64,000 bases of DNA, taken from an uncultured Gemmatimonadales bacterium (GTDB lineage Bacteria > Gemmatimonadota > Gemmatimonadetes > Gemmatimonadales > GWC2-71-9). Where the stretch lies: positions 144,176 through 208,175 of the forward strand of contig CAVVHO010000006.1 of NCBI GenBank assembly GCA_963748035.1, given 5' to 3'. This document shows, piece after piece, positions 26,427-60,977 of this stretch. Position numbers and translations under genes: made by a program. Position 1 is the first letter of the stretch, and each line of letters begins with the position of its first letter. The notes beneath the pieces were generated by a model. That model was not told where the DNA came from and made no database searches. It saw nothing but the letters and a program-made list of their open reading frames with translations.

Positions 26427-27079
26427 TCCCCCTTCCCTTTCTCAGCGAGCACTCGGGGGAACGGGGCCAGTTTCTCAAGTTGTTTGGTCAACTGCTGGGT
26501 CCGGCTTTCTTTCTACTCGTCGCCGGCGAATTCATGGCACAGCGGGCGGGGTGGATCGGGAGCGGTGCTTTCTGGTTTCTGGTCCTGATCGTGAACCTTC
26601 CGCTGATCTTTCTCTGCTCGGTACTCCTGTACGCCCTCATCGACCGGACCGTCGACAGCGCCGCGGCATTGGCGTCCGGCAATCTGCCATCGGCCCCCGC
26701 CCACTCCGGCTGCGAATCCCTGGAGGCGCGGGGATTGTACCATCAGGCCGCCGATGCCTATCGAGCCCTCATTGCCGCACACCCGGCCGACAACCTCGCC
26801 CGCATCAAGCTCGCCGAGCTGTACCGCGCACACCTGGGCGAGCCGGAGAGCGCGGAACGCCTCTTTCTGGAGGTCCGCCAGAATCACCCCGATCCGCGGC
26901 ATGATTTCCTCGCCGCGAATCTGTTGCTGGAGTTGCACCGGAGCACCGGTCGGCGAGACCGGCTGGTAGTGGAGCTGGCGAAGTTCGCCGACCGCTATCG
27001 CAACACCCGGGCCGGCCGCGATGCCGCTCGGGCACTCAGAGAAATGAAGGGGGAGATGAGGGAAGGTAGAGAGGAGTGA
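26423..27079 (+). CDS. Membrane protein with C-terminal TPR-like helical region
   Basis: ATG 26423 has an ATGA overlap with the upstream stop. Two hydrophobic helices (LLGPAFFLLVAGEF, FWFLVLIVNLPLIFLCSVLLYALI) are followed by YHQAADAYRALIAAHPADNLARIKLAELY. Confidence 0.65.
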   Translation: MIPLPFLSEHSGERGQFLKLFGQLLGPAFFLLVAGEFMAQRAGWIGSGAFWFLVLIVNLPLIFLCSVLLYALIDRTVDSAAALASGNLPSAPAHSGCESLEARGLYHQAADAYRALIAAHPADNLARIKLAELYRAHLGEPESAERLFLEVRQNHPDPRHDFLAANLLLELHRSTGRRDRLVVELAKFADRYRNTRAGRDAARALREMKGEMREGREE

Positions 27080-27296
27080 GGAGTGAGCGGTGAGGAGTGA
27101 GGAGTGAGAAGTGAGGAGTGAGGAGTGAGGAGTGAGGAGTGAGAAGTGAGAAGTAACAGCTCCTGGGGCTCACGCCTGACGGCTGATGGTTGACGGCCAA
27201 TGGCTGACGGCTGACGGCTCACGGCTCACGGCTCACGGCTCACGGCTCACGGCTGACGGCTGACGGCTGACGGCTAACGGCTAACGGCTAACGGCT
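27072..27296. repeat. Two adjacent heptamer arrays: GAGTGAG/GAGTGAA (about 12 units), then GACGGCT/CACGGCT/AACGGCT (about 18 units)
   Basis: Read directly at 27072-27156 and 27166-27296. The stop codons of both flanking convergent genes lie inside the arrays. Confidence 0.92.
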
Positions 27297-28179
27297 GCAA
27301 CGTAAACACCGCCACCTCCGGTGGACACCGAAACCGCGCCCGGATGCTGGTAGTGCCCACGCCACGGCTCACGTAGAGCGGCGCAAACGAATCGCGATAC
27401 CATCCCGCCAGAAAACGCCCGCTTCCAGTTGGGGTAATCGCCGGGAGAAGCGGAAGACGGATCTGGCCCCCGTGGGTATGGCCGGACAGCGCCAGAGCGG
27501 GAGCAGGCAGCGCTTGCTGCATCACCTCGTCGGCGTAGCCCGGAGCGTGAAAGCCCCAGACGGTCACCGCGCCGGAAGGGACTTCGCGGAGGGCGCGGGC
27601 CGGATCCGGCGCCCCACTCAGCGGGTCGTCCAGTCCCACGATCGAAAGCCGATGCTCCCCGACCGTCAGCGTCAGCGCCTCATTGAACAGGAAGGTCGCG
27701 CCGGCCCGTTCGCAGGTCCGCTCCATGTGCGACGGGGTGATGCCGACCTCGTGCTCCCAGTTCCCCAGCGTCACCACGGTGGCGAGCCGGCCGTGACACC
27801 CTTCCACAAACGATCGGACGTGACGCAACTGACCGACGCTCTCTGCCAAGTCACCCGTGATAATCGTGATGTCGGGCGCGGCCTCGCTCACGATCTCGCT
27901 GGCGCGCCGAGCCGCGGGATGGAGGCCATGGTAGAGATGGATGTCACTCAGGTGCGCGATCCGGAGCCCGGCGAGTTCTGCGGGAAGGGTGGGGACCACG
28001 ACTTCCTCGCGAACCAATTCCACCCGACGGGGGGCCCAGACAAAGGCGTCGGTCCCTGCGCCACCCAGCCCGGCCAGCGCACCGCCTGCCGCAATCAGGA
28101 ATCGCCGCCGGGAAACCGAGCCAGAAATCCCAGTCGATGTACCCTTCCCGGCGGAGCCTTGCTCATCCATCCCCATCAT
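27274..28179 (-). CDS. Metallophosphoesterase with Tat-type signal
   Basis: 301 aa. SRRRFLIAAGGALAGLG twin-arginine motif, and HLSDIHL, GDLAE, GNWEH, GHTHGG phosphoesterase motifs. Confidence 0.87.
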   Translation of the reverse strand: MMGMDEQGSAGKGTSTGISGSVSRRRFLIAAGGALAGLGGAGTDAFVWAPRRVELVREEVVVPTLPAELAGLRIAHLSDIHLYHGLHPAARRASEIVSEAAPDITIITGDLAESVGQLRHVRSFVEGCHGRLATVVTLGNWEHEVGITPSHMERTCERAGATFLFNEALTLTVGEHRLSIVGLDDPLSGAPDPARALREVPSGAVTVWGFHAPGYADEVMQQALPAPALALSGHTHGGQIRLPLLPAITPTGSGRFLAGWYRDSFAPLYVSRGVGTTSIRARFRCPPEVAVFTLQPLAVSR

Positions 28180-28251: not shown

Positions 28252-28348
28252 TCGGTTATCGGCTATCGGCTATCGCTATCGGCTATCGGCTATCGGCTGA
28301 CGGCTAACGGCCAACGGCTGACGGCTGACGCGCTAACGGCTAACGCCT
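28252..28348. repeat. Heptamer array (CGGCTAT then GACGGCT/AACGGCT units)
   Basis: cggttatcggctatcggctatcgctatcggctatcggctatcggctgacggctaacggccaacggctgacggctgacgcgctaacggctaacg. Confidence 0.9.
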
Positions 28349-32348: not shown

Positions 32349-35300
32349 TTACGGCGAGACGTTCACCGTCACCGCGCTGGCGGGAATCACCACGTACGTC
32401 ACGATTCCCGCCGAAACGGTCGTAGTCCCCGAGGCCAGCGGATCGAACTCGACGCCGCCCGCGGCCACTGTGGCCGCCGAACGTGCCTGCCCGACCGGAA
32501 TAGACACGCTGACCAGTTGGCCCGTCGTTACCGTCGTCACCAGCTGTGCGGCCGTCTGATTGCTGTTGCTGATTGTTGCCGTCACTGCGGTGGCGCCCGC
32601 ACGGACGCTTTGCTCCGCGGCGAGCGCAGTGAGGGTGATGTTCGGAACGCCCAACCGTACCAGGAAGGGATCATTCGCGGAGGCGGCGGTCGTCGAGGTT
32701 GTAAGACCAAGGATATCAAACCCTGGCGCGGCCACCGTCACCGTCGGCGTAATCCCGTTGGAGTACCCCGTAGCACTCGCGGTGATAGTCGCGGTCCCCG
32801 TCCCGACGCCCTGAATGAAGTAACTGAAGCTGCTCTGGTTCAGCGGCACCTGAACGTCGAGCGTCGGTTGGCCCGGCGTGGCCACATCAGGCGCCAGGAG
32901 AAGCGCGGACGAGTTCGAGCTGACCAAATGAACGGTGAGGGCACCCGGTCCGGGATTCACGACCTGGAGACTCCCGCTGCCCTGGTCCTGCAGGCCATTG
33001 CCTAGGCGCCCGGTCCCCTGCGCCGGCGTGAACATGTTGATCACCGGGGCCGAGACGGTTATCGCTACCGAGTCCGGTGCCCCCGGGAACGCTGCGAATC
33101 CGGGGATCGATGCCGCCACGGTGTCCACGCCCAACCCGATGGGGTCGAACTCCACACCGCCCGTCAGCACGGTGCTCGGCGAGCGCGCCTGTCCGATTGG
33201 GATGGTCACGCCAACCACCTGCCCCGTCACCGCCGTCGTCACCAGTTGGGCCGCGTTTGCGTTGCGATTGGTGATCGTCGCCGACAGCGCCGTACCGCCC
33301 GCCCGGATGGCCTGCTCCGCCGCGAGGCCGGTGTTACCGACGTTGCGCGAACCTAGGCGTACCAGGAACGGATCGTTTGCCGACAGGGTGGTTGTGGTGC
33401 CCGGCAAGCCGAGGATGTCAAACCCCGGTGCCCCGACTGTCACCGTGGTCGTCGCATTCGTGTACCCTGACGCGCTGGCCGTGATGGTCGGGGTCCCGCT
33501 TGTGTTCTCTACGCCCTGGACGAAGTAGCTGAAACTGCTGCCGTTAAGCGGTACTTGGATGTCGATCGTCGGTTGCCCGACGGTACTGGCATCCGGCGCT
33601 AGGAGCAGGATCGATGGCTGGGAGCTCACCAGGTGAACGACCCGCACACCAGGTCCGGGGTTCGCAACCTGGAGGCTTCCGCTCCCCTGGTCCTGCAGGC
33701 CTGCACCCAGTCGCCCCGTTCCTTGGGCAGGCGTGAACATGTTGATCCCCGGTGCCGTGACGGACACAGCGACCGAGTCGGGTGCTCCAGGGAAGATCAC
33801 GAATCCCGGAATTGAGGCCGACACCGTATCGAATCCTGCGCCGAGCGGATCGAACTCTACGCCGCCGGCCGCCACAGTGTTCCCAGAGCGCGCCTGTCCG
33901 ACAGGGATGGTCACTGTTACTTGTTGCCCGGTCGTCACCGTAGTCACCAATTGTGCGGCTGGAGCGTTGCTATTTGTGATCGTCGCTGTCACCGCTGCGC
34001 CACCGGCCCGGATGGCCTGTTCCACGGACAGGCCGGTGTTGCCGGCGTTCGGCGCGCCCAACCGGATCAGGAACGGGTCGTTTGCCGACAGGCTGGTGGT
34101 CGTGCCGGGCAAGCCGAGTATGTCGAACCCGGGCGTCACCACGGTCACCGTCGGCGAAGTGGCGCTGGTGTAGCCCGTCGCACTGGCCGCGATGGTCGCG
34201 GTCCCCGTCGCCGCACCTTGGATGAAGTAGCTGAAGCTGCTCCCATTGATGGGCACCGTCACGTCGAGTGTCGGCTGCCCCGTGGTGATGGCATCAGCCG
34301 AAAGCAGGAGGGCGGACGGGTTCGAGCTCACCAGATGCACGGTCAACGCACCCGGACCGGGGTTCGCCACCTGCAGGCTCCCGCTCCCCTGGTCCTGCAG
34401 ACCGACCCCCAATCGCCCGGTCCCTTGCGCCGGGGTGAACATGCTGATCGCCGGTGCCGAAATCGACACCGCGACCGAGTCTGGTGCCCCAGGGAAAATC
34501 ACGAAGCCCGGAATCGTAGCCGACACCGTGTCAAACCCCGCGCCAAGCGGATCGAACTCCACACCGCCGGCGGCGACGGTGTTCCCCGAACGCGCCTGCC
34601 CCACCGGAATGGTCACACTCACCAGCTGCCCGGTGGTTGCCGTGGTCACGAGTTGGGCCGCTGAAGCGTTGCTGTTGGTAATCGCCGCCGTCGCCGCGGT
34701 GCCGCCCGCCCGGATGGCCTGCTCCGCCGACAAGCCGGTCACGGCTGCATTCGGCACACCCACCCGCACGATGAACGGGTCGTTCGCCGAGAGGCTGGTG
34801 GTCGTGCCCGGCAGGCCGAGGATATCGAATCCGGGTGTAGCCAACGTCACCGTCGACGAGGTGCCGTTGCTGTACGCGGGCGCGCTGGCGGTGATCGTCG
34901 CAGTACCGGCTCCGACCCCCTGAATGAAGTAGCTGAAGCTGCTCTGACTGACGGGTACCTGGACGTCAAGCGTCGGTTGACCCGGCGTCACTGCGTCCGG
35001 CGCAAGCAGCAACGCCGCGGCGTCCGAACTCACCAGATGCACGGTCAGCGAACCTGGTCCGGGATTGGAGACTTGGAGACTGCCGCTTCCCTGGTCCTGC
35101 AGGCCAATGCCCAGGCGCCCCGTCCCCTGAGCCGGCGTGAACATGTTGATCACCGGGGCCGTCACTGTCACCGCCACCGAGTCTGGCGCGCCGGGGAAGA
35201 TCACGAAACCCGGGATCGAGGCCGTGACGGTGTCGAACCCGGCGCCAAGCGGATCGAACTCCACCCCGCCCGCGGCCACAGTGTTCCCAGAGCGGGCCTG

Positions 35301-38297
35301 CCCAACTGGGATCGTCACCGTCACCTGCTGGCTGGTGTCAGTCGTCGTCACCAACCGTGCCGCGGTGGCGTTGCTGTTGGTGATCGTCGCCGTGACTGCG
35401 GTGCCACCCGCCCGGATGGCTTGCTCCGCGGACAAGCCCGTAACGACGGCGTTTGGAACACCCAACCGCACCAGGAACGGATCGTTCACCGACAGGCTGG
35501 TTGTCGAACCCGGCAGGCCCAGGATATCAAACCCGGGCGTTGCCAGGGTCACGATCGACGAGGTCCCGTTGCTGTAGCCCGTCGCACTTGCGGTAATCGT
35601 TGCTGTACCAGCACCGACCCCTTGAATGAAGTAGCTGAAGCTGCTCTGGTTGGCCGGTACCTGGATGTCGAGCGTCGGCTGCCCCGGCGTCGCCGCATCT
35701 GGCGCCAGCAGCAGGGCCGACGGGGCCGAGCTGACCAGGTGCACCGTCAGGGTACCCGGTCCTGGGTTCGCTACCTGGAGGCTCCCACTTCCCTGGTCCT
35801 GCAGGCCTATGCCCAGTCGCCCGGTCCCCTGGGCCGGCGTGAACATCGTAATCACCGGAACGGGGTTGACCGTCACGTTGATCTGGTCCTGGGTCAGACT
35901 GGTCGCCTGGGCGGTCAGTGTGGTTGTGCACGGCAGGGTGACAGGTCCGCCGCCATAAGTCAGCGTCGCCGGAATAGACACGAGCCCAGTGGGGATCGTC
36001 ACCGTGGCCGGTGCGGACAGACACGCCGGGTTGCCGCTGACCAGGCTCACGGGGATGCCTGGCGACGGGGCGGCGGTCGGCTGGCCGTTGCTTTCGAAGT
36101 TGATGGTGATCGAAGTCCCGAAGCTCGCGTTCAATGTCGCCGACGTCTGTACAATGTTGAGCGCGGCGGTGGTCGTCGCCGTCGAAGTGGCGAAGTTGTA
36201 GGCCGGATTGCTGGCGGTGATGGTCGCGGCGCCGGGCAGAACGCCGATCAGCGTCGCGTTGGCGGTAATGGCCCCGGCAGTGATGTGCACCGGCGAAGTC
36301 TGCACGGCCACGAATCCAGGAGCGCTACTCACCACCGCGATATCGACACCACCAACTGGAGCCGGGGCGCCGATCTGCACCGGGATCTGCGTCGTCTGGC
36401 CGTAGGGCACGTTGATGGTGAGGGGGAGCGCGATCGCTCGGTTCTGCACGTCCACCGACAACACACCCGAGGTGTAGCCGGGGGCCTGACCGGTGATCGT
36501 GGTCGTCCCCGATGACCCACCCTGAATGGTCACGGTCCCCGCGGTCTGACCCTGCGGAATGAAGACCGGTGAGCCGATCACGCTGACGAGACTGGTATTC
36601 TGGCTGGTCACGGCCACCGAGACACCGTTGGCGCCCGCCGGAGATGCGAGCGTCACATTCACGGTAGCGGTCAGGCCGATGCCCACACCCGGAGTACCCG
36701 GGAAACTCAGCGTGATCTGCGGCAGGCCTACAGTGGCCGTGAAGGTGACGGGGGGCAGCGTCCCAACGGTTGCCGTCGCGGACTGGCTTGTTGCGACCAG
36801 CCCGAGCGTCCAGCTGGATTGGGCGTGACCGGAAGCGTCGGTCGGTCCGCTCGCCGGCGCGAGTGATCCCCCATCCGCCGTGGCCCAGGCAACCAACGCC
36901 AGCGGCACCGGATTGCTGAAGGCGTCACGAACTTCCACCTCGAGTGGCGTCGGTAGCGCTGAGCCGGCCGGGCCAGTCTGGCTGTTCCCCCCGGCAATCA
37001 CCACGCTGGCGGCCGGGCCGGCCGTTCCGGTGGCGTTGAATGTGACTGCCTGCAGCGTACTGACCGTCGCCGTCATCGTGTTCACGCCCGCCGCCTGCCC
37101 CACCTTCCAGCTCCCCACTGTGGCGATGCCTTGGCCGTCGGTGACCTGGGTGGCGCCGGTCACCGAACCACCGCCGGCGGTGATCGCGAAGTCCACCGTT
37201 ATGCCGGAGAGGACAAGCCCGTTGGCATCCTTCACCACTACCGACGGCGCCGTCGCGAACTGGTTGACGACAACGTTCTGTGACGTGATCGAGACCGCCG
37301 TTACTGTCGCGGGCACGCCGGGGGCCGCTGGCGTCACGGTGACCAGCGTCGTGCCGTCGACACCGCCGATCGTGGCCGTGATCGTCGCTGTGCCTTGCGC
37401 AACACCCGTCACCAGGCCCGTAGGTGACACCGTAGCGATGGGCAGCGCATCGGAGCCCCAAGTCACCGGCAGGCCTGTCAGGATGTTGTTGTTGGCATCG
37501 CGTGCGGTGGCGCTGAGCTGTACGGTTTGCGCCACCTGAATGGTGGGTGTTGCGGGTGTCACCTGCACCGAAGCAACCGCCACGGGTGCCCAGGAAACCG
37601 TGCCCGACGCCGAAATCCCGTTGGGAGTCTTCGCGGTGATCACCACGCTACCCGATCCGGTCGCGGGCGCCGTGATCGTCGCCTGGTTGATGCCCTGTTG
37701 GACTGGCGTGAGGAGCGTGGTGTTGCTGGAGCTGTAGGCAACCGGCACACCCGTCAACGTGGTGTTGCCCTGCAGGACCGTCGCGGAGAGCGTCGCGACC
37801 TGGCCGCTAACGAGCGTCGTCGTTGCGGGGAAGACGATCTGGTCGGCCGCGTTCCCCGGTCCGGTATAGGTCGGCGTGGGTACCGAGGCCGTGATGCTCT
37901 GGTTCGCCGTCGCGGTCACCGTCCCGCTGGCCCGGTAGTACTCCACCCCGCCGCTCAGGACGGTCGCGAGAAAGCTGAAATCCTCGGTCGTGCTCGTGAG
38001 GTCAAGGCTGATTTGAATGATCAGGTTGTCGCCGCTCTCCGAGTATTCCTGGGCGGTGAGCGAGCGACTGAAGGCGACCGTATTGTCGGAGACCCGCCGC
38101 AGTTCGAGCAGCACCTCGTCAACCGGAATCGTGAACTCGCCCCCGACCTGGAACAGCGAGCTCGCGTCGAACTGGCCCTGTGCCGTTCGCTTGGGGGCCA
38201 GGGCGCTGTCGGTGGAGCACGTGGTCAACAGAATTGCACCCAGCAAGACCCGCAGGGTGCGGAGGCCCAGACGCAAGCGGTGCGAGGCTGCCGTCAT
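32349..38297 (-). CDS. Giant surface lipoprotein with bacterial Ig-like (Big_2/invasin-like) domains and five C-terminal 234-aa tandem repeats
   Basis: 1982 aa. Lipobox LLTTCS. A Big_2-like segment (VASVQVTPATPTIQVAQTVQLSATARDANNNILTG...VTGVAQGTATITATIGG). Thr/Ala/Val/Gly-rich beta-type composition throughout. The plus-strand track ORFs in this interval are antisense artefacts. Confidence 0.9.
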   Translation of the reverse strand: MTAASHRLRLGLRTLRVLLGAILLTTCSTDSALAPKRTAQGQFDASSLFQVGGEFTIPVDEVLLELRRVSDNTVAFSRSLTAQEYSESGDNLIIQISLDLTSTTEDFSFLATVLSGGVEYYRASGTVTATANQSITASVPTPTYTGPGNAADQIVFPATTTLVSGQVATLSATVLQGNTTLTGVPVAYSSSNTTLLTPVQQGINQATITAPATGSGSVVITAKTPNGISASGTVSWAPVAVASVQVTPATPTIQVAQTVQLSATARDANNNILTGLPVTWGSDALPIATVSPTGLVTGVAQGTATITATIGGVDGTTLVTVTPAAPGVPATVTAVSITSQNVVVNQFATAPSVVVKDANGLVLSGITVDFAITAGGGSVTGATQVTDGQGIATVGSWKVGQAAGVNTMTATVSTLQAVTFNATGTAGPAASVVIAGGNSQTGPAGSALPTPLEVEVRDAFSNPVPLALVAWATADGGSLAPASGPTDASGHAQSSWTLGLVATSQSATATVGTLPPVTFTATVGLPQITLSFPGTPGVGIGLTATVNVTLASPAGANGVSVAVTSQNTSLVSVIGSPVFIPQGQTAGTVTIQGGSSGTTTITGQAPGYTSGVLSVDVQNRAIALPLTINVPYGQTTQIPVQIGAPAPVGGVDIAVVSSAPGFVAVQTSPVHITAGAITANATLIGVLPGAATITASNPAYNFATSTATTTAALNIVQTSATLNASFGTSITINFESNGQPTAAPSPGIPVSLVSGNPACLSAPATVTIPTGLVSIPATLTYGGGPVTLPCTTTLTAQATSLTQDQINVTVNPVPVITMFTPAQGTGRLGIGLQDQGSGSLQVANPGPGTLTVHLVSSAPSALLLAPDAATPGQPTLDIQVPANQSSFSYFIQGVGAGTATITASATGYSNGTSSIVTLATPGFDILGLPGSTTSLSVNDPFLVRLGVPNAVVTGLSAEQAIRAGGTAVTATITNSNATAARLVTTTDTSQQVTVTIPVGQARSGNTVAAGGVEFDPLGAGFDTVTASIPGFVIFPGAPDSVAVTVTAPVINMFTPAQGTGRLGIGLQDQGSGSLQVSNPGPGSLTVHLVSSDAAALLLAPDAVTPGQPTLDVQVPVSQSSFSYFIQGVGAGTATITASAPAYSNGTSSTVTLATPGFDILGLPGTTTSLSANDPFIVRVGVPNAAVTGLSAEQAIRAGGTAATAAITNSNASAAQLVTTATTGQLVSVTIPVGQARSGNTVAAGGVEFDPLGAGFDTVSATIPGFVIFPGAPDSVAVSISAPAISMFTPAQGTGRLGVGLQDQGSGSLQVANPGPGALTVHLVSSNPSALLLSADAITTGQPTLDVTVPINGSSFSYFIQGAATGTATIAASATGYTSATSPTVTVVTPGFDILGLPGTTTSLSANDPFLIRLGAPNAGNTGLSVEQAIRAGGAAVTATITNSNAPAAQLVTTVTTGQQVTVTIPVGQARSGNTVAAGGVEFDPLGAGFDTVSASIPGFVIFPGAPDSVAVSVTAPGINMFTPAQGTGRLGAGLQDQGSGSLQVANPGPGVRVVHLVSSQPSILLLAPDASTVGQPTIDIQVPLNGSSFSYFVQGVENTSGTPTITASASGYTNATTTVTVGAPGFDILGLPGTTTTLSANDPFLVRLGSRNVGNTGLAAEQAIRAGGTALSATITNRNANAAQLVTTAVTGQVVGVTIPIGQARSPSTVLTGGVEFDPIGLGVDTVAASIPGFAAFPGAPDSVAITVSAPVINMFTPAQGTGRLGNGLQDQGSGSLQVVNPGPGALTVHLVSSNSSALLLAPDVATPGQPTLDVQVPLNQSSFSYFIQGVGTGTATITASATGYSNGITPTVTVAAPGFDILGLTTSTTAASANDPFLVRLGVPNITLTALAAEQSVRAGATAVTATISNSNQTAAQLVTTVTTGQLVSVSIPVGQARSAATVAAGGVEFDPLASGTTTVSAGIVTYVVIPASAVTVNVSP
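32352..35861 (-). repeat. Five in-frame tandem copies of a 702-bp (234-aa) unit forming the C-terminal 59% of the giant protein
   Basis: The unit starts (V/A)I(N/T/S)MFTPAQGTGRLG.GLQDQGSGSLQV.NPGPG. Antisense track ORFs beginning MNMLI(P/T)GAVT at 33733 and 35137 are exactly 2 x 702 nt apart. Copies are roughly 80-90% identical by eye. Confidence 0.9.
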
Positions 38298-38412
38298 TCA
38301 GGGCACATGGTTATTTGCTAAGATGAAGCTACAGGCCGACTTGCCCACTGTCAGCCCCCCCGGCGTCCCGGGCTGGTCCATCGCCTTGGCCTTAGAATCG
38401 CCCAGATAGCCC

Positions 38413-38428
38413 CGCCAGAGTCGTGCCT
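38413..38428 (-). promoter_or_regulatory. Sigma-54 (-24/-12) promoter candidate upstream of the giant lipoprotein gene
   Basis: The minus strand reads aGGCACGactcTgGCg against TGGCACG-N4-TTGCW. The GG/GC spacing is correct, with one mismatch in the -12 element. It lies about 115 nt upstream of the ATG at 38297, directly downstream of a sigma-54 activator/kinase pair. Confidence 0.4.
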
Positions 38429-38446
38429 GACGACTGGCCGTTCGCT

Positions 38447-38603
38447 GTCCGCCGTCCGCCATCCGCCGTCCGCCGTCCGCCGTCCAGCCAGCTGAAGTCA
38501 GTCCTCTGCCCTCGCTCTATAGCTCCCCCTCGCTCCTTGCTTTTGGCTGCTTACTTCTCACTCCTCACGCCTCACTTCTCACTTCTTACTTCTTACTTCT
38601 TAC
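38447..38603. repeat. Heptamer arrays: CCGCCGT/CCGCCAT (about 6 units) and CTCACTT/CTTACTT (about 9 units)
   Basis: Arrays at 38447-38487 and 38539-38603. The kinase stop codon (38593) lies inside the second array. Confidence 0.9.
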
Positions 38604-40084: not shown

Positions 40085-41443
40085 CTACAGCCCATACCTC
40101 TCCATCCTCCTATACATCGCGCTCCGGCTCAACCCCAGGGCCTTTGCCGCCTCGACCACATTGTCATTGGCGCGGGCGAGCGCCTTCTGCACCAGCAGTT
40201 TCTCTACCTCCTCGAGGGTCAACTGGTCGAGTCGCGCAGCGCTGTCGCTGGGTGGCGCGAGTGCCAGGTCCGGTAGCCGGATCTCGGGCCCGTCCGCCAG
40301 CAGGACCGCGCGTTCGACGGTGTGATCCAGCTCTCGCACATTGCCGGGCCACCCGTACCGCAGCAGCGCCTCCATGGCGTCCGCGCGGAAACCGCCCACC
40401 GCCTTTCGATAGCGCCCGGCGTGGCGCATGAGGAAGTTGGCGGCCAGCAGCGGGATGTCCTCCCGCCGGTCCCGGAGTGCCGGAATGAGGATTTCTACCG
40501 TGTTGAGCCGATAGAGCAAGTCCTCCCGAAATCGCCCGGCGGCCACTTCGACCCTGGGGTCCACATTGGTGGCGGAGACCACGCGGACATCCACCTTGCG
40601 AGTCTTCGATGAACCTACCCGCTCCAGTTCACCGGTGTTGAGCACCCGGAGCAGCTTGGCCTGCTGCCCGGGTGTGATGTTCGCGATTTCATCGAGGAGC
40701 AGCGTGCCGCCATCCGCCAGCTCAAACCGGCCGATCCGGTCGGCCTTTGCGTCGGTGAATGCGCCCCGCAGGTGGCCGAACAGCTCGCTCTCGAACACAC
40801 CCTCCGACAGCCCCCCGACGTTGACGGTGATCATGGGTCGAGCGGCCCGCGCGCTCGTGGCATGCAGCCACCGGGCGGCGACCTCCTTACCAACGCCGTG
40901 CTCGCCGAGGAGGAGCACGTTGGCATCGGATGGCGCCACCCGCTCCATCAGCCGTGTGGCCTGTCGCATGGCGGGCGACTCGTTGACGAGATCAGGCAGC
41001 CCATCGCGGCGGAGCGTCTGGTTCTCGCTTTCCAGTCGCTGGCTCCGGCGCAGCGCGCGACCCAACTCCACCTGGGTGCGGAGTACCGAGATCAACCGGT
41101 TGTTGTCCCAGGGCTTCTCGAGGTAGTCCCGCGCACCCCGGCGCATCGCCTCCACGGCGCCCTCGACGCTGCCATAGGCCGTCATCACCACCACGGGGAG
41201 CGATGCGTCCAGTAACTGAATGCGGGTGAGCAGGTCGAACCCCTCTCGGCCCGACGTCGTATCCCTGGTGTAGTTGAGATCCATCAGGAGGACGTCGAAA
41301 TCCTTGAGTTCCAGCGTCTGCAGCACACCCCCTGGCGAGGTAGTCGTCTCCACGACAAAGCCCTCACCCTTCAGCAACAGCCGCAGGGCCTGGAGGATGT
41401 CGGGTTGATCGTCGGCGACGAGCGCGCGAGGGGTGGTGGGCAT
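40085..41443 (-). CDS. Sigma-54-dependent response regulator (NtrC/NtrX family)
   Basis: Starts at the Met at 41443 (MPTTPRALVADDQPDILQAL). Receiver domain, AAA+ domain with GEHGVGKE and the GAFTDA variant, and a C-terminal HTH. Confidence 0.92.
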   Translation of the reverse strand: MPTTPRALVADDQPDILQALRLLLKGEGFVVETTTSPGGVLQTLELKDFDVLLMDLNYTRDTTSGREGFDLLTRIQLLDASLPVVVMTAYGSVEGAVEAMRRGARDYLEKPWDNNRLISVLRTQVELGRALRRSQRLESENQTLRRDGLPDLVNESPAMRQATRLMERVAPSDANVLLLGEHGVGKEVAARWLHATSARAARPMITVNVGGLSEGVFESELFGHLRGAFTDAKADRIGRFELADGGTLLLDEIANITPGQQAKLLRVLNTGELERVGSSKTRKVDVRVVSATNVDPRVEVAAGRFREDLLYRLNTVEILIPALRDRREDIPLLAANFLMRHAGRYRKAVGGFRADAMEALLRYGWPGNVRELDHTVERAVLLADGPEIRLPDLALAPPSDSAARLDQLTLEEVEKLLVQKALARANDNVVEAAKALGLSRSAMYRRMERYGL

Positions 41444-41467
41444 CGGAGTTAGTGGAAGATCGCTGTT

Positions 41468-41583
41468 CGTCCGCCATCCGCCATCCGCCATCCGCCATCG
41501 GACCTAAAAAGTGCAGAGCTCATTGGCCTCCGGTGAGTTCGGACTCCTTGAGCCATTGCCCCGACGGCGGACGGCGGAAGGCG
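41468..41583. repeat. Inverted heptamer arrays (CCGCCAT x4 ... GACGGCG/GAAGGCG)
   Basis: cgtccgccatccgccatccgccatccgccatcgg (41468-41500) and cgacggcggacggcggaaggcg (41561-41583). Confidence 0.85.
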
Positions 41584-41585
41584 CA

Positions 41586-42032
41586 TCACTCCCGATCCTT
41601 CACCCTTCTCCGATCCGCTACCCGCCGCACCAGTTTGAGTCCGGACCAGGTCTCATCAACCGCGCACACCTTCACGTCCACCAGGCGATTGGCAAGAGCC
41701 AGTTCCCGTATCACACCCTCTGTCACGTCGGTCTCCAGCTTGGCTGCCTGCTTGGGCCAGGAGATCCAGACGGTGCCGTCGTCCTCGAGGGCGGCGGCGA
41801 TGGCCGGGAGCTTCTTGGCGAGGTCGGTCCGCCGAGTTACGAAACAGTGCACGAAGTCTGCCGACTTGGGGAGCCGAGTCGTCAGCGTCACTCCTCTCGG
41901 CAACGGCGTCACCACGCGCTCGTATGACCACGGGGCGCCAAGGACCACGACGCGCATCCCCGGTGCGAGACCGAGCTTCTGGGGAAGCGGGGTGGCGGAG
42001 TAGCCGGCCGAGCTGGAGCGCTGGGGAGGCAT
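41586..42032 (-). CDS. DUF3052-like protein
   Basis: 148 aa. The N-terminal SAGYSATPLPQKLGLAPGMRVVVLGAP and later WISWPKQ resemble the DUF3052 family as I remember it. Confidence 0.7.
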   Translation of the reverse strand: MPPQRSSSAGYSATPLPQKLGLAPGMRVVVLGAPWSYERVVTPLPRGVTLTTRLPKSADFVHCFVTRRTDLAKKLPAIAAALEDDGTVWISWPKQAAKLETDVTEGVIRELALANRLVDVKVCAVDETWSGLKLVRRVADRRRVKDRE

Positions 42033-42036
42033 GGAG

Positions 42037-42154
42037 TAGCCGTTAGCCGTTAGCCGTTAGCCGTTAGCCGTTAGCCGTTAGCCGTTAGCCGTTAGCCGTT
42101 AGCCGTTAGCCGTTAGCCGTTAGCCGTTAGCCGTTAGCCGTTAGCCGTTAGCCG
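42037..42154. repeat. Perfect tandem array of about 17 x TAGCCGT (GCCGTTA)
   Basis: I see no substitutions across 118 nt. It begins 5 nt from the start codon of the DUF3052-like gene. Confidence 0.95.
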
Positions 42155-42226
42155 AGGCTGGTTTGACGATTGGTTGAGTCAAGTCTTGCACTTTCGCTCT
42201 GCCTCAAACTGAGATCTGGACCAACT

Positions 42227-42589
42227 ATGCGCGACTTCAGAGAACTAAGAGTGTGGCAGGCTGGACATCAAATCGCTCTGGACATGTACAAGGTAACCGC
42301 AGCGTTTCCTCGGGCAGAAATCTACGGCATCACCTCTCAGATCCGACGGTCGGCCGTCTCCATCTCAGCAAACATCGCCGAAGGCTCCGGTCGTCACACG
42401 GACCCCGAGATGCGCCGATTCCTGATCATCGCGCACGCGTCAGCAACCGAACTAGAGTGCCTGATGGTGCTGGCAGGTGACCTGGGTTACCTCTCCGACC
42501 GGAATCGTATGCCCTTGCTCAGACAGGTTCAGGATCTGAGACGGATGCTGAACGGATTTATCCGCCGCCTACGTCGCACGCCGCAGTAG
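42227..42589 (+). CDS. Four-helix-bundle protein (23S rRNA intervening-sequence protein / Avd-like family)
   Basis: Starts at ATG 42227. MRDFRELRVWQAGHQIALDMYKVTAAFPRAEIYGITSQIRRSAVSISANIAEGSGR...ASATELECLMVLAGDLGYL is the hallmark pattern of this family. Confidence 0.87.
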   Translation: MRDFRELRVWQAGHQIALDMYKVTAAFPRAEIYGITSQIRRSAVSISANIAEGSGRHTDPEMRRFLIIAHASATELECLMVLAGDLGYLSDRNRMPLLRQVQDLRRMLNGFIRRLRRTPQ

Positions 42590-42615
42590 GTGAACGTAAA
42601 CCGTGCAGCTATGCC

Positions 42616-42737
42616 TACCGGCTATCGGCTAGCGGCCGCCCAAGGTTGCTTCCTGCCAAGGAACCACAGGCAACATGCTTCAAGCTAACGGCTAACGGCT
42701 AACGGCTAATGGCCAACTGCCAATTGGCTAACGGCCA
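42616..42737. repeat. Heptamer arrays complementary to the 42037-42154 array (CGGCTAT; TAACGGC/TAATGGC)
   Basis: ccggctatcggctagcggcc (42616-42637) and gctaacggctaacggctaacggctaatggccaactgccaattggctaacggcc (42684-42737). Confidence 0.88.
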
Positions 42738-42759
42738 CCGGCGCTCAGCGGACGGCCCA

Positions 42760-43419
42760 TCATACCACCCACCCATCCTTCAACTGCACCACCCGATTCC
42801 CGACCCTCGCGTTCTCTTCCGAGTGCGTCACCTGAACGATCGTCGTCCCTTCCTTATTGAGGCGACTGAACAGTTCCATGATCTCCTTGCCCTGCGCAGA
42901 GTGGAGATTGCCGGTGGGCTCGTCGGCGAGGAGCAGCGGCGGGCGGGCGATAACCGCCCGCGCAACCGCCACCAGTTGCTGCTGGCCGCCGGAGAGCTGG
43001 CGGGGGTAGAGATCCTTCTTGCCCACGATGTGGAACCGGTCCAGCGTGTCGGCGACGAGGGCGGCGCGCTCCGATCCTTTCACGTCACGGTAGCTGAGCG
43101 GCACATCGAGATTCTCCGCCACGGTGAGATCGTCCAGCAGGTGGTACTGCTGAAAGACGAAGCCCACACTCTGCCGCGCGAGGTTGTTCCGCTCCTTCGG
43201 CTTGAGCGCATTGACTTCCTGGTCCCTGAGCCAGTACTGGCCGGTGTATTCCGCGTCGAGCATGCCGAGTATGGCGAGCAGGGTGGACTTGCCCGCGCCG
43301 GAAGGCCCCATGATCGTCACGAACTCACCTTGCTGGATGGTGAGATCGATTCGCCGCAGGATGAACGTGGGCGACGGTTTGGTGTCCAGGGACTTCTCGA
43401 GGTTCACGAGGCGGATCAA
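42760..43419 (-). CDS. ABC transporter ATP-binding protein (MacB/LolD/FtsE type)
   Basis: 219 aa. Walker [10 protein letters not shown], signature [14 protein letters not shown], Walker [12 protein letters not shown]. Confidence 0.9.
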
Positions 43420-43455: not shown

Positions 43456-43654
43456 GCCGTCAGCCTATAGCCTCTAGCCGTCAGCCGTCAGCCGTCAGCC
43501 GTTAGCCGTTAGCCGTTAGCCGTTAGCCGTTAGCCGTTAGCCGTTAGCCGTTAGCCGTTAGCCGCCCGGTGACGGTGGTTACGCAGAGGTCGCAAACGCA
43601 AGTGTTTTGCCTAATGGCTAACGGCTAATGGCTAACGGCTAGTGGCTAACGGCC
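43456..43654. repeat. Heptamer arrays (GCCGTCA x3, GCCGTTA x about 9) with an inverted partner (TAATGGC/TAACGGC)
   Basis: 43456-43565 is the direct array and 43610-43654 is complementary to it. Confidence 0.92.
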
Positions 43655-48806: not shown

Positions 48807-48930
48807 GCCGTTAGCCGTTAGCCGTTAGCCGTTAGCCGCTAGCCGTTAGCCGTTAGCCGGCCAGCCACCAGTGACGGGTCAAGAAGTCAACAGGTTCCAG
48901 CTAATGGCTAATGGCTAATGGCTAATGGCC
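48807..48930. repeat. Inverted heptamer arrays (GCCGTTA x about 7 ... TAATGGC x4)
   Basis: gccgttagccgttagccgttagccgttagccgctagccgttagccgttagcc ... ctaatggctaatggctaatggctaatggcc. Confidence 0.92.
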
Positions 48931-51048: not shown

Positions 51049-51068
51049 GCGTTGGGCCTCTCGGGGAG

Positions 51069-51800
51069 CCGTTAGCCATTAGCCGTTAGCCATTAGCTAG
51101 AGGCATCCGGCGAGGGGCTCGTTCTAGGCCAGCGAACCTCCAGGTCCGCGGCTCACGGCTAGATGGCTAACGGCTAGATCGGCTAACGGCCGACGGCTAA
51201 CGGCAACCGCTATTGACCACGGCTGACGACTAGTCCTACAGGTAAGTTCCATGCCGCACCACTGCCACTCTGCACTCACCAACCGATGCCCCGGCCTGCA
51301 CTTACCCACCACGTTTCAGCGCTGCAACGCGCGAAGTGTGCGGTTATGGGATTCGCTGTCCCAGTTTCGGACGGGCGGACGGTCAGGACGGTCAAGACGG
51401 TCGCGACGGTCAAGACGGTCAAGACGGTCACGACGGTCAGACGGTCAGGCGGTCCGGCGGTCCAACGTGCCTCCCCCCGTTCTTACATCGTCCCCCAGCG
51501 AGATGTACCTTGGGCCCGGCCGCGGCCCTTCCAGCCATCAGTCATCAGCCGTCGTTGACAGCCGTTAGGGGACAGCCGTCAGCCGCCAGCCATCCGTGGC
51601 CAATTGGCCTATAGACGGATTGCGAGGCGGGAGGGTTGGAAGAGCCCGGCTACAGGCGGGAATGCCAATGACTGACGCTGCTCCTGACCGTTCCGACGCG
51701 ACGGTCGTGACGGCTAACGGCTGACCGCTAACGGCTGACGCTGACGGGCCTGCAAGCTGACGGCTGACGGCTGACGACGGCTAACGGCTAACGGCCAACC
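51069..51800. repeat. Repeat-dense gene-less spacer: GCCGTTA/GCCATTA, NACGGCT, a 9-mer array GACGGTCNN (51370-51472), and further GCCGT-type arrays
   Basis: Sub-arrays at 51069-51099, 51150-51208, 51370-51472, 51534-51600 and 51700-51800. Track ORFs here (for example 51251-51568, with RSRRSRRS) are translated repeat. Confidence 0.85.
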
Positions 51801-51825
51801 GATAGCCCAACCTACCCCAGCTCCC

Positions 51826-55716: not shown

Positions 55717-55782
55717 GGGACGGGCCGACGGGCGACGGGACGACGGGACGACGGGACGACGGGACGACGGGACGACGGGAGT
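55717..55782. repeat. Octamer array (GACGGGAC x about 6, preceded by GACGGGC variants)
   Basis: ggggacgggccgacgggcgacgggacgacgggacgacgggacgacgggacgacgggacgacggga. Confidence 0.9.
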
Positions 55783-55818
55783 AGGTGGTTGACGCTTGGT
55801 TGACGCAAGAGGGCTAAG

Positions 55819-56199
55819 TTGTCCGCCATGCGAGTCTTCGAACGCCTCGATGCATGGCAGCGCTGTCACGAACTCACGCTCGCGGTGTACCTGGTCACAC
55901 GCAATTGGTCCGACAGCGAGCGGTTCGGCCTGATCAGTCAGGTGCGGCGAGCTGCAGTTTCTGTTGAGTGCAACATCGCCGAAGGAGCAGCAAAGCGCGG
56001 TCCGGCCGAGTTTCGGCGCTACCTGGACATCGCGCTAGGGTCTCTCTCCGAGGTGGCTTGCTTGCTGCGCATCGCGGCGGATCTCAATTTGCATAGTCAG
56101 GTTGAATCCGAGCGGATCAATGAGATCCGTGAGAAGGCGAGCCAAGTCACCTGGCGCCTTTATCAATCGATGTCCAAGGCAAGGTCAACTACTTCCTAG
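55819..56199 (+). CDS. Four-helix-bundle protein (23S rRNA intervening-sequence protein / Avd-like family), second copy
   Basis: 126 aa. MRVFERLDAWQRCHELTLAVYLVTRNWSDSERFGLISQVRRAAVSVECNIAEGAAKRG...GSLSEVACLLRIAADLNL. The start may be ATG 55828. Confidence 0.87.
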   Translation: MSAMRVFERLDAWQRCHELTLAVYLVTRNWSDSERFGLISQVRRAAVSVECNIAEGAAKRGPAEFRRYLDIALGSLSEVACLLRIAADLNLHSQVESERINEIREKASQVTWRLYQSMSKARSTTS

Positions 56200-56247
56200 T
56201 AGGATCGATCGCTCCGGCGTCGCTTCGGTCCGCCACTCCTCGTACTT

Positions 56248-56302
56248 CCCCTCCCGTCCGTCATTTTCTTTTCCCGTGCGTCCCGTCGGCCCGTCGGACC
56301 GC
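56248..56302. repeat. Imperfect array complementary to 55717-55782 (CCCGTCC/CCCGTCG units)
   Basis: cccctcccgtccgtcattttcttttcccgtgcgtcccgtcggcccgtcggaccgcc. The reverse complement contains acgggccgacggg, identical to a stretch in the upstream array. Confidence 0.8.
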
Positions 56303-60604: not shown

Positions 60605-60977
60605 GTTCCAACGGGCTTCCGACGATTTCCGACGGGCTTCCGCGCAGTTCCAACGGGGTTCCGGTGATTTCTGACGGGGTTCCGCGCGGTTCCGACGGGC
60701 TTCCGGGCATTTCCGACGGGCTTCCGGGCATTTCCGACGGGGTTCCGCGCAGTTCCGACGACCTTCCGCACATTTCCAACTGACTTCCGCGCATTTTCAA
60801 CGAGCTTCCGCGCATTTCCAACGAGCTTCCGCCCATTTCCGACGGGCTTCCGCCCGTTTCCAACGGACTTCCGCTCATTTCCGACAGGCTTCCGCGCAGT
60901 TCCAACGGGCTTCCACGCATTTCCAACGAGCTTCCGCGCATTTCCAACGGACTTCCGCGCATTTCCAACGCTTCCCG
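60605..60977. repeat. Tandem array of about 17.5 copies of a 21-nt unit (consensus approximately TTTCCAACGGGCTTCCGCGCA)
   Basis: I parsed 17 full units plus a partial one. Each unit is two related half-sites, TTCCnACGrGC and TTCCGCGCAk. There are no spacers. All six frames are open across it. Confidence 0.92.

Follow-up and report, generated by a model that had tools for sequence, protein, structure and literature searches.

The stretch of DNA analysed here, hereafter the window, comprises 64,000 nt from an uncultured Gemmatimonadales bacterium (GenBank assembly GCA_963748035.1, contig CAVVHO010000006.1), and our subject is a small gene within it, IVP1, that lies between two inverted arrays of a 7-nt tandem repeat. 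The locus is one copy of a conserved cross-phylum module in which a gene of the PF05635/TIGR02436 family is enclosed by inverted short tandem arrays, with the layout 5' (TYAGNNN)n ... gene ... (NNNCTRA)n 3', the units being octamers in one Gemmatimonadota subfamily. IVP1 (42227-42589, plus strand) encodes a 120-aa four-helix-bundle protein with an isoelectric point (pI) of 10.9. Its upstream (5') arm (42037-42154, plus strand) consists of GCCGTTA units, for which Tandem Repeats Finder (TRF) reports a period of 7, 16.9 copies, 100% matches and a score of 236; read in the TYAGNNN register, the unit is TTAGCCG. The spacer between this arm and the start codon (42155-42226, plus strand) contains a tandem GTTGA-type motif, GGTTTGACGATTGGTTGAGTCAAG, at about 42160-42183, and may be a promoter or operator. 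Right behind the gene are three CGGCTAT/CGGCTAG units (42613-42636, plus strand; TRF period 7, 3.1 copies) oriented like the 3' arm, and then the downstream (3') arm itself (42684-42742, plus strand), about 7-8 TAACGGC/TAATGGC-type units in the NNNCTRA register (TRF 7.3 copies, 78% matches). Between these two downstream repeat blocks a short imperfect hairpin, GGTTGCTT / AAGGAACC, can be read from the sequence (42644-42665, plus strand; 7/8 pairs, 6-nt loop), which received no score in the intrinsic-terminator scan. Scans for sigma-70 promoters and intrinsic terminators gave no hit in cassette 1, as we call IVP1 with its two arms.

The downstream arm is the reverse complement of the upstream unit. 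We scored such complementarity by comparing the 200 nt upstream of a gene with the reverse complement of the 200 nt downstream, against shuffles, and took z>4 as positive; cassette 1 scores z = 22. The left neighbour is a DUF3052-family gene (41586-42032, minus strand; 148 aa, PF11253 E 1.3e-5), whose start codon is 4 nt from the upstream array, and the right neighbour is an ABC-transporter ATPase gene (42760-43419, minus strand; PF00005 E 1.2e-31) of a MacB/FtsX permease run, convergent with IVP1. The array, the gene and the downstream units were thus recovered by TRF, profile searches and inspection of the sequence where the original prediction had placed them, and IVP1 does lie antisense within a minus-strand gene run, from DUF3052 to the ABC ATPase.

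Membership of IVP1 in PF05635/TIGR02436 is supported by full-length matches above the curated cut-offs: an end-to-end match to PF05635 (E 1.1e-33, 116 bits, cut-off 33.8) and 114 bits to TIGR02436 (cut-off 24). A family motif, GxxRxxxSxxxNxxE, has been published (Lin 2006; Zhang 2013, PMC3936711). The corresponding segment reads GITSQIRRSAVSISANIAEG in IVP1 and GLISQVRRAAVSVECNIAEG in IVP2, a paralogue described below, with G34, R41, S45, N49 and E52 invariant in the alignment. The RxxxSxxxNxxE part agrees with the published motif, whereas the glycine does not have its published spacing; what we observe is G-x6-R-x3-S-x3-N-x2-E, residue 37 being S, T or L and not R. The only solved relative of IVP1 is Xcc0516 (2GSC; E 7e-20, residues 4-117), and by homology to it IVP1 would probably form a pentameric ring of four-helix bundles.

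Two functional classes were considered for the protein and rejected. No PADLOC family matches IVP1 or IVP2, so an anti-phage defence system was set aside. IVP1 might also be Avd, the accessory protein of diversity-generating retroelements (DGRs), which we take to be a basic pentamer acting on nucleic acid together with a partner. Avd is described in these terms in PMC10053308 as well. The bundle of Avd (bAvd, PDB 4DWL) is homologous and of the same fold family, some database relatives of IVP1 are labelled bAvd, and IVP1 has a weak match to NF033474. However, that match reaches 17.1 bits (E 0.005) against an equivalog cut-off of 80, and IVP2 gives no hit at all. Unlike the IVP1 locus, Avd works with a reverse transcriptase and a template/variable repeat pair, and neither a reverse transcriptase domain nor such a repeat pair was found near either cassette, where the neighbours are genes for DUF3052, the ABC ATPase, MacB/FtsX permeases, a response regulator (RR), a histidine kinase (HK), a TonB-dependent receptor and succinate dehydrogenase. 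We therefore give the Avd assignment almost no credence.

The original prediction held that a transcript spanning the locus could form a long stem with the open reading frame (ORF) in its loop. In silico, the RNA fold of 42033-42745 does pair both arrays, with a minimum free energy of -306 kcal/mol against -254 +/- 6.8 for shuffles (z = -7.7). This is the architecture of the ORF-containing intervening sequences (IVSs) of 23S rRNA in Leptospira, Coxiella, Xanthomonas and Brucella (Ralph & McClelland 1993; PMC4990558), in which an S23p/PF05635 ORF likewise lies between stem-forming terminal inverted repeats; the Coxiella example is 428 nt long, low in GC, closed by a 28-bp terminal stem and excised by RNase III (PMC4990558). 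The rRNA IVSs share with the cassette a GC content below that of the host and a sporadic distribution that suggests horizontal spread. A further shared point is the old suspicion that the ORF works for the element that carries it, and Ralph & McClelland are cited in PMC4990558 as suggesting that it encodes a mobility component. Here the layout occurs outside rRNA, as had been predicted. An Rfam scan at gathering thresholds had 0 hits in the window, and in 20 related loci it picked up a tRNA and nothing else; the cassette lies between protein-coding genes rather than inside a 23S or 16S rRNA helix (9, 25 or 45). It further differs from the rRNA IVSs in sitting at protein-gene junctions in either orientation, in having arms made of 7- or 8-nt tandem arrays of variable copy number instead of a fixed 28-bp stem, and in carrying a conserved upstream motif of its own. 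The likeness raises the possibility that the cassette acts purely as RNA, its arms pairing in a spanning transcript and RNase III cutting the stem, so that the ORF-containing loop is released or inactivated or the flanking operon mRNA is separated, and that the protein has a function unrelated to the repeats, the arms being there solely to build the stem. Transcription of the minus-strand operon would produce the hairpin as well. Against this, the locus is not in rRNA and its arms are very unequal (118 versus about 59 nt) and of strain-variable length; we return to this explanation below, once other copies of the module have been described.

A phmmer search over all six-frame ORFs of the window found a single paralogue of IVP1, IVP2 (E 1.6e-20), and it too is enclosed. 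IVP2 (55828-56199, plus strand) encodes a 123-aa PF05635/TIGR02436 protein (TIGR02436 97 bits) that is 36% identical to IVP1 in the alignment. Upstream of it are about 8 GACGGGAC octamer units (55719-55780, plus strand; TRF period 8, 7.9 copies, 96% matches), then a spacer (55781-55827, plus strand) with a GGTTGACGCTTGGTTGACGCAAG motif (55785-55808) and, 7 nt ahead of the ATG, a TAAGTT box. Downstream, degenerate CCCGTC-type units in the GTCCCGTC register (56247-56301, plus strand) are complementary to the upstream octamers (z = 8.7), and TRF detects a period of 8 with 3.5 copies within them, at 56273-56301. Both of the PF05635 genes in the window therefore lie between inverted arrays.

The association holds well beyond the window. 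By BLAST, the closest database homologues of IVP1 come from Gemmatimonadota metagenome-assembled genomes and are 58-66% identical. At four close-homologue loci of other Gemmatimonadales (L002, L003 with two genes, and L004), 3-5 GCCGTTA-type units begin directly after the start codon of the divergent neighbour, and 2-12 TAACGGC/TAATGGC units lie 0-3 nt past the stop codon; the GCCGTTA...TAACGGC arms are kept in all four though the aligned proteins are only 57-63% identical to IVP1. A scan of species-representative genomes then gave 80 loci, and statistics were compiled on 83 loci from at least eight phyla, which include Acidobacteriota, Gemmatimonadota, Chloroflexota, Desulfobacterota, Planctomycetota, Cyanobacteria, Nitrospirota and Actinomycetota, among others. 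Complementary flanks were found at 55 of the 83 loci (median z 7.1), compared with 5/83 in the direct-orientation control and 5 of 155 control ORFs from the same loci, one of these five being itself an IVP gene. The check that the original prediction had called for, whether other genes of the family are flanked by inverted arrays, thus came out in its favour, and flanking is systematic. An assembly artefact was rejected as a source of the pattern, because this layout recurs in assemblies of independent origin (ENA, JGI, NCBI and Logan).

The complementary segments are almost always heptamer arrays in a common TYAGNNN register, with variants such as TTAGCCG, TCAGCCA, TCAGCTA, TCAGTAA, TCAGAAA, TTAGCTG and TTAGGTA. 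Our first detector, which demanded at least three near-perfect units, saw arrays at only 20/81 IVP loci, since units diverge from one another at the three variable positions, and was replaced by a core-spacing test and by unbiased period calling. The former counts runs in which three or more TYAG cores follow each other at intervals of exactly 7 nt, expected by chance at about 5e-7 per position. Such runs are present upstream in the sense direction at 53/83 loci and in the antisense direction at 2, and downstream in the antisense direction at 33/83 and in the sense direction at 2; since an inverted repeat reads alike on both strands, this polarity says nothing on the orientation of the gene. 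The median gap is 43 nt from array to ATG and 7 nt from stop codon to array. The downstream arm usually begins 0-8 nt past the stop codon or within it, and in 9 loci the stop codon falls inside the first downstream unit. Arms also match within loci. Arms scored 41.9 against their own partner and 22.7 against the partners of other loci, and the own partner ranked in the top 3 in 27 of 47 cases. In the Rubrobacteraceae, IVP genes (L008, L012, L017, L032, L047, L074, L081) are mostly free of detectable inverted flanking arrays (z about 0), and have either lost them or carry repeats of a kind missed by the tests used.

The solved relative of IVP1 provides a further case. Repeat #15 of the GGGAATC arrays tabulated for Xanthomonas is placed between XCC0517 and XCC0516, where it overlaps the start annotated for XCC0516, the structural type member of the family (Rehm 2015 Table S2); this suggests that the link between gene and array reaches the Gammaproteobacteria. 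In Xanthomonas campestris ATCC 33913 this is a 4-unit GGGAATC array at 622956-622983, by the gene for the PF05635 protein of PDB 2GSC, and the annotated start codon of XCC0516 may be a mis-annotation.

The length of the repeat unit goes with the protein subfamily. Five relatives of IVP2, 64-78% identical to it, were found in unrelated contexts, beside genes for phospholipase D (PLD), a GerE-type RR, an ABC exporter and kinase, and type II secretion. Octamer arrays are present on at least one side in 5/5 of these loci and on both sides, inverted, in L166, L167 and L175, the upstream units being GGTCCGAC, GGTCAGAC or GACGGGTG and the downstream units GTCTGACC, GTCGGACC or CGACCGTC, in up to 11 copies. 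Unbiased period calling over 5-12 nt returned period 7 in 61 of 66 calls for IVP1-type flanks and period 8 in 9/9 calls for IVP2-type flanks, the latter from six different genomic contexts. Period tracking protein subfamily suggests a relationship between protein and repeat that a purely RNA-structural model does not predict. Both subfamilies share the tandem GTTGA motif, which in the form GTTGA-N5-6-GTTGA lies between upstream arm and start codon in all Gemmatimonadota cassettes (L002, L003, L004, L166, L167, L171, L175 and L176, beside IVP1 and IVP2). IVP2-type cassettes have in addition a TAnnnT box 7-11 nt ahead of the ATG, a position that suggests a leaderless or near-leaderless mRNA. Because the promoter and terminator scans found nothing convincing (in cassette 2, one unconvincing intragenic terminator-like site), what we say of promoters is based on motif conservation.

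These observations bear on the purely RNA-based explanation introduced above. In its favour are the array-paired fold, the match in layout, lower GC and S23p-family ORF to the RNase III-excised IVSs of Coxiella and Leptospira (PMC4990558), and the complementarity that is kept within loci though arm sequences differ between them. However, the GTTGA motif and the TAnnnT boxes lie inside the arms, and if they form a promoter the gene's own transcript would be without the 5' arm. Moreover, a structural stem needs neither tandem periodicity nor a TYAG core nor a period linked to the protein subfamily. We consider this explanation unlikely, and control of expression through processing of the stem, which the original prediction allowed for, is not the mechanism that the evidence favours most.

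In order to see how the cassette came to lie where it does, we turn to the same junction in relatives, surveyed by a metagenome scan anchored on the sigma-54 RR gene. The ancestral arrangement is a co-directional permease-ABC-RR-HK run. The junction in which the module sits, permease-ABC-(DUF3052)-RR-HK, is tightly packed or holds only a hairpin of comparable repeats in relatives. Empty sites, with ABC and RR abutting or overlapping, were seen in many relatives (L089, L140, L152, L164, L165 and L132). An antisense IVP gene occurs at the junction in only a few lineages, namely L086, L088, L090 and L111 in addition to the window, L002 and L004; in L086, L088 and L111 the two arms match and are built from a different unit, and in L090 only the downstream arm is present. 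At this junction, no DUF3052 gene exists in L002 and L004, and L136 and L161 have one without an IVP gene. Divergence is faster in the IVP gene than in the genes beside it (the RR of L086, for instance, is 85% identical and its IVP 58%), and the GC content of the IVP gene is below that of its surroundings in 72/75 loci, by 7 points on average; IVP1 itself has 58% GC overall and 67% at third codon positions (GC3), while neighbouring genes have 72-89% GC3. Empty junctions, lower GC and fast divergence fit an acquired or mobile cassette. No transposase was found in or beside either cassette, nor, on inspection by eye and not by a systematic search for target-site duplications, an obvious direct repeat around the arms.

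The original prediction of an IVS-like insertion cassette, to be delimited by comparison with orthologous loci lacking the gene, accordingly stands in part, and the locus is probably an insertion. The empty orthologous junctions are real, the gene is lower in GC, and an S23p-family ORF does lie between inverted repeats. But some gene-less sites (L136, L113, L096, L107, L119, L123) already hold inverted heptamer hairpins, which agrees in part with one of the outcomes that the original prediction had named as speaking against it. In L136 the hairpin is exactly at the ABC/DUF3052 junction, and a gene-less heptamer hairpin is found at the junction in L093 as well. Because gene-less hairpins occupy empty junctions and are also common in the window, the arrays are not simply the ends of a cassette.

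How common they are is evident from TRF and our own scan, which place arrays in 21 of the 39 window intergenic regions longer than 20 nt and almost none inside genes; a few overlap the ends of crude ORF calls, and two short period-8/9 calls fall within genes. Most are gene-less inverted pairs with loops of 40-65 nt, for example 3158/3239, 7425/7515, 17204/17314, 39928/40027, 41468/41563, 43456/43608, 46154/46259, 48807/48900 and 49701/49771. The unit varies by intergenic region (GCCGTTA, GGCTATC, TGAGGAG, ATTGCCG, TCCGCCA, GGGGAAC), and GCCGTTA/TAACGGC, the unit of the IVP1 arms, also builds gene-less hairpins at 43456-43653, 48807-48929 and 51067-51212. Because arrays are so widespread in the window, those at 42 kb are ordinary for this genome, and the unusual feature is the gene between the arms.

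This abundance would fit a gene that is a bystander, in which case inverted arrays would be generic, for example terminator-like or generated by slippage, and PF05635 genes would be small genes, mobile or dispensable, that insert or persist in the loops as neutral or targeted sites, with no functional link. Consistent with this are the prevalence of gene-less pairs in the window, the hairpins at the same junction in the six gene-less relatives just named for the orthologous comparison, 82 further TYAG runs elsewhere in the IVP loci, and PF05635 genes wedged inside cas operons (PMC3936711). However, control ORFs are found between matched inverted arms in just 5/155 cases against 55/83 for IVP genes, and in L002 the IVP flanks are one of only two array sets within 20 kb. 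The split between octamers and heptamers follows the subfamily across unrelated insertion contexts, and the downstream arm typically starts within 8 nt of the stop codon or inside it, neither of which a bystander would lead one to expect. Taken together, we regard the absence of any functional link as improbable.

The arrays change quickly between close relatives. L001, an independent metagenome contig, is about 99% identical to the window across the long gene block upstream (98.8% over 9.2 kb), and 94.5% identical over the 3.1 kb that hold the cassette and its repeat-rich spacers. It carries the identical cassette, with about 10 upstream units compared with 17 in the window. The next intergenic region to the left is fully remodelled between the two, whereas its flanking genes are about 99% identical. 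In the window this region (41443-41585, from the sigma-54 RR to DUF3052) contains TCCGCCA x4, a 63-nt loop and GACGGCG x3, and its counterpart in L001 (9187-9410) contains CGGCGGAC x3 followed by about 10 GCTAACG-type units. Between L001 and the window, then, whole hairpins are swapped, beyond a change in copy number. With 7-nt tandem units, intergenic location, strain-variable copy number and convergent pairs, the window arrays belong to the class of intergenic heptamer arrays.

Such variation could mean that the locus is a contingency locus, the upstream array acting as a simple-sequence-repeat (SSR) switch in the divergent IVP1/DUF3052 promoter region, where slippage would tune or phase-vary expression of either gene or both. 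The array is perfect, its copy number differs (17 versus 10) between strains about 99% identical, and 4 nt separate it from the start codon of DUF3052, the IVP motif following downstream. Heptamer SSRs are known to control phase variation at Haemophilus influenzae hmw1A/HMW1A (PMC8262952, PMC12721329). Nevertheless, a switch leaves unexplained the downstream arm, the inverted layout across phyla and the gene-less hairpins between co-directional genes, and it could operate alongside the other models instead of competing with them. As an account of the locus we find it highly improbable.

The reading that we favour, tentatively and at slightly less than an even chance, is by analogy: the IVP protein would recognise the repeat arrays that flank its own gene and fill the genome, in the manner of repetitive extragenic palindromic (REP) elements and their associated tyrosine transposases (RAYTs), and the ORF-bearing rRNA IVS would be the same module. 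REP/REPIN elements and RAYT genes were reportedly described by Nunvar in 2010 and by Bertels and Rainey in 2011. As in those systems, inverted copies of a short repeat stand on either side of a single gene, this repeat is dispersed through intergenic regions mostly as hairpin-forming pairs, most repeats are gene-less whereas the gene is nearly always with repeats, and gene subfamilies go with repeat types. The differences are that RAYTs are HUH/Y1 (IS200/IS605-like) transposases, whereas IVP is a 120-aa four-helix bundle, and that REPs are palindromes of 20-40 nt, whereas the cassette repeats are tandem units of 7-8 nt. Because PF05635 is the sole Pfam match, the locus is not a member of the REP/RAYT class and the resemblance is a functional analogy only.

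Under the favoured reading, the basic, probably pentameric protein would bind repeat units, most probably where the two arms have paired, be it in DNA (cruciform or hairpin) or in RNA (stem). For the protein, the arrays next to its gene would act as a cis target, with a role in feedback control and/or the co-inheritance and spread of gene and arms together, and the gene-less array hairpins of the genome would be trans targets or derivatives. The ORF-containing 23S rRNA IVS would be the same module after it had landed in an rRNA helix. The basic nature of IVP1, the fast turnover of arrays, the match of subfamily to period and the matching of arms within loci all suggest such recognition.

Several observations weigh against protein-repeat recognition, a step that is pure inference. 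The IVP protein contains no known catalytic or sequence-specific nucleic-acid-binding motif, and shared descent of gene and arms could make subfamily and period co-vary without recognition. TYAG arrays were not detected at 21/83 loci, notably most of those in Rubrobacteraceae, and the 53-to-2 polarity describes hairpins and not gene orientation. Within the window, there are about seven repeat-unit families to two IVP genes, and because the families outnumber the genes a one-to-one cognate pairing is not demonstrable there. Hairpins of the CGGCTAT...ATAGCCG type have the opposite polarity. We rejected the idea that gene-less hairpins are cassettes from which the gene has been deleted, as their loops share with the cassette ends only weak GTTGAC-like stretches (43568, 48891) in inconsistent orientation. 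Finally, a minus-strand gene at 27274-28179 lies between arrays of the same orientation, an exception to the inverted-pair rule.

To our knowledge, the S23p/IVP family has been given no function outside DGRs since 1993, even though its copies number in the thousands across Cyanobacteria, Bacteroidota, Acidobacteriota and other phyla. Intergenic heptamer arrays were catalogued in 1990, 2007 and 2015 without a mechanism. They include the short tandemly repeated repetitive (STRR) heptamers of Calothrix, known from a passage of PMC4692102 that cites Mazel 1990; TAACTGA repeats in Beggiatoaceae, Cyanobacteria and Bacteroidetes, for which S1, Csp and CsrA were proposed as binders (MacGregor 2015, PMC4679880); and GGGAATC arrays in Xanthomonas, with 70-75 convergent pairs, together with GGGGAYT arrays in Nostoc (Rehm 2015, PMC4692102). 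Read on the opposite strand, TAACTGA is a TYAGNNN unit. Like the window arrays, the STRR, TAACTGA and GGGAATC arrays are intergenic 7-nt tandem units whose copy number varies between close relatives, often in convergent inverted pairs. The papers on heptamer arrays proposed G-quadruplexes or binding by S1, Csp or CsrA, without a connection to PF05635; unlike the arrays published, the present repeats systematically bracket a gene and have an octamer variant. Full-text literature searches, with subscription-only papers outside their scope, returned no paper linking PF05635, TIGR02436 or S23p to heptamer or tandem repeats, and the gene-array module appears to be unreported so far.

It is possible, though we would sooner expect it to fail than to hold in full, that the 7-8 nt intergenic arrays in general (STRR, TAACTGA, GGGAATC and the window arrays) have their missing trans-acting partners in standalone PF05635/TIGR02436 proteins, with subfamily matched to unit and period, in a horizontally spread, REP/RAYT-like two-component system of at least eight phyla for which the 23S rRNA IVS would be one special landing site. 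If true, two long-standing orphans, a protein family and a class of repeats, would explain each other, and the ORF-containing rRNA IVSs would represent one insertion site of a broader element and not an rRNA oddity. The cross-phylum linkage with a subfamily-tracking period yields a testable hypothesis of the form protein X binds repeat Y, and may explain PF05635 genes in CRISPR-association screens, in one of which the family appears (PMC10910872).

Some further features of the repeats deserve mention. The arrays around the gene at 27274-28179 are GGCTSAC x19 upstream and CGGCTAT/GGCTRAC x12 downstream (27071-27297, 28252-28345), a separate GAGGAGT x12 array adjoins the GGCTSAC array, and a past rearrangement between hairpins might have left this direct arrangement behind. 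A divergent intergenic region of 777 nt (51049-51825) contains at least four repeat blocks and no recognised ORF. In one block, GACGGTCA(A) at 51368-51462, the unit is 8/9 nt long and akin to the octamers around IVP2-type genes; in another, GCCGTCA and ACGGCTA units form an inverted pair whose loop measures about 120 nt. Short ORFs of 43-66 aa have been called across arrays in L171 (1266-1424), L172 (1224-1424), L003 (1020-1151 and 4480-4638) and the window (38298-38462), and are probably artefacts of periodic sequence. Because the arrays are hypervariable between 99%-identical strains and draw short ORF calls from several pipelines, they matter for assembly, strain typing and gene calling.

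Two repeats of another kind were noted in the window. At 60606-60970, within an intergenic region, there is a 21-nt tandem repeat, TTCCAACGGGCTTCCGCGCAT, in 17.4 copies with 82% matches, which resembles the constant-size, variable-sequence repeats of 20-21 nt of Subirana & Messeguer (PMC8161180). At 32349-38297, a 1982-aa Big_2-domain protein is encoded that has internal repeats of about 700 aa, roughly 75% identical in DNA.

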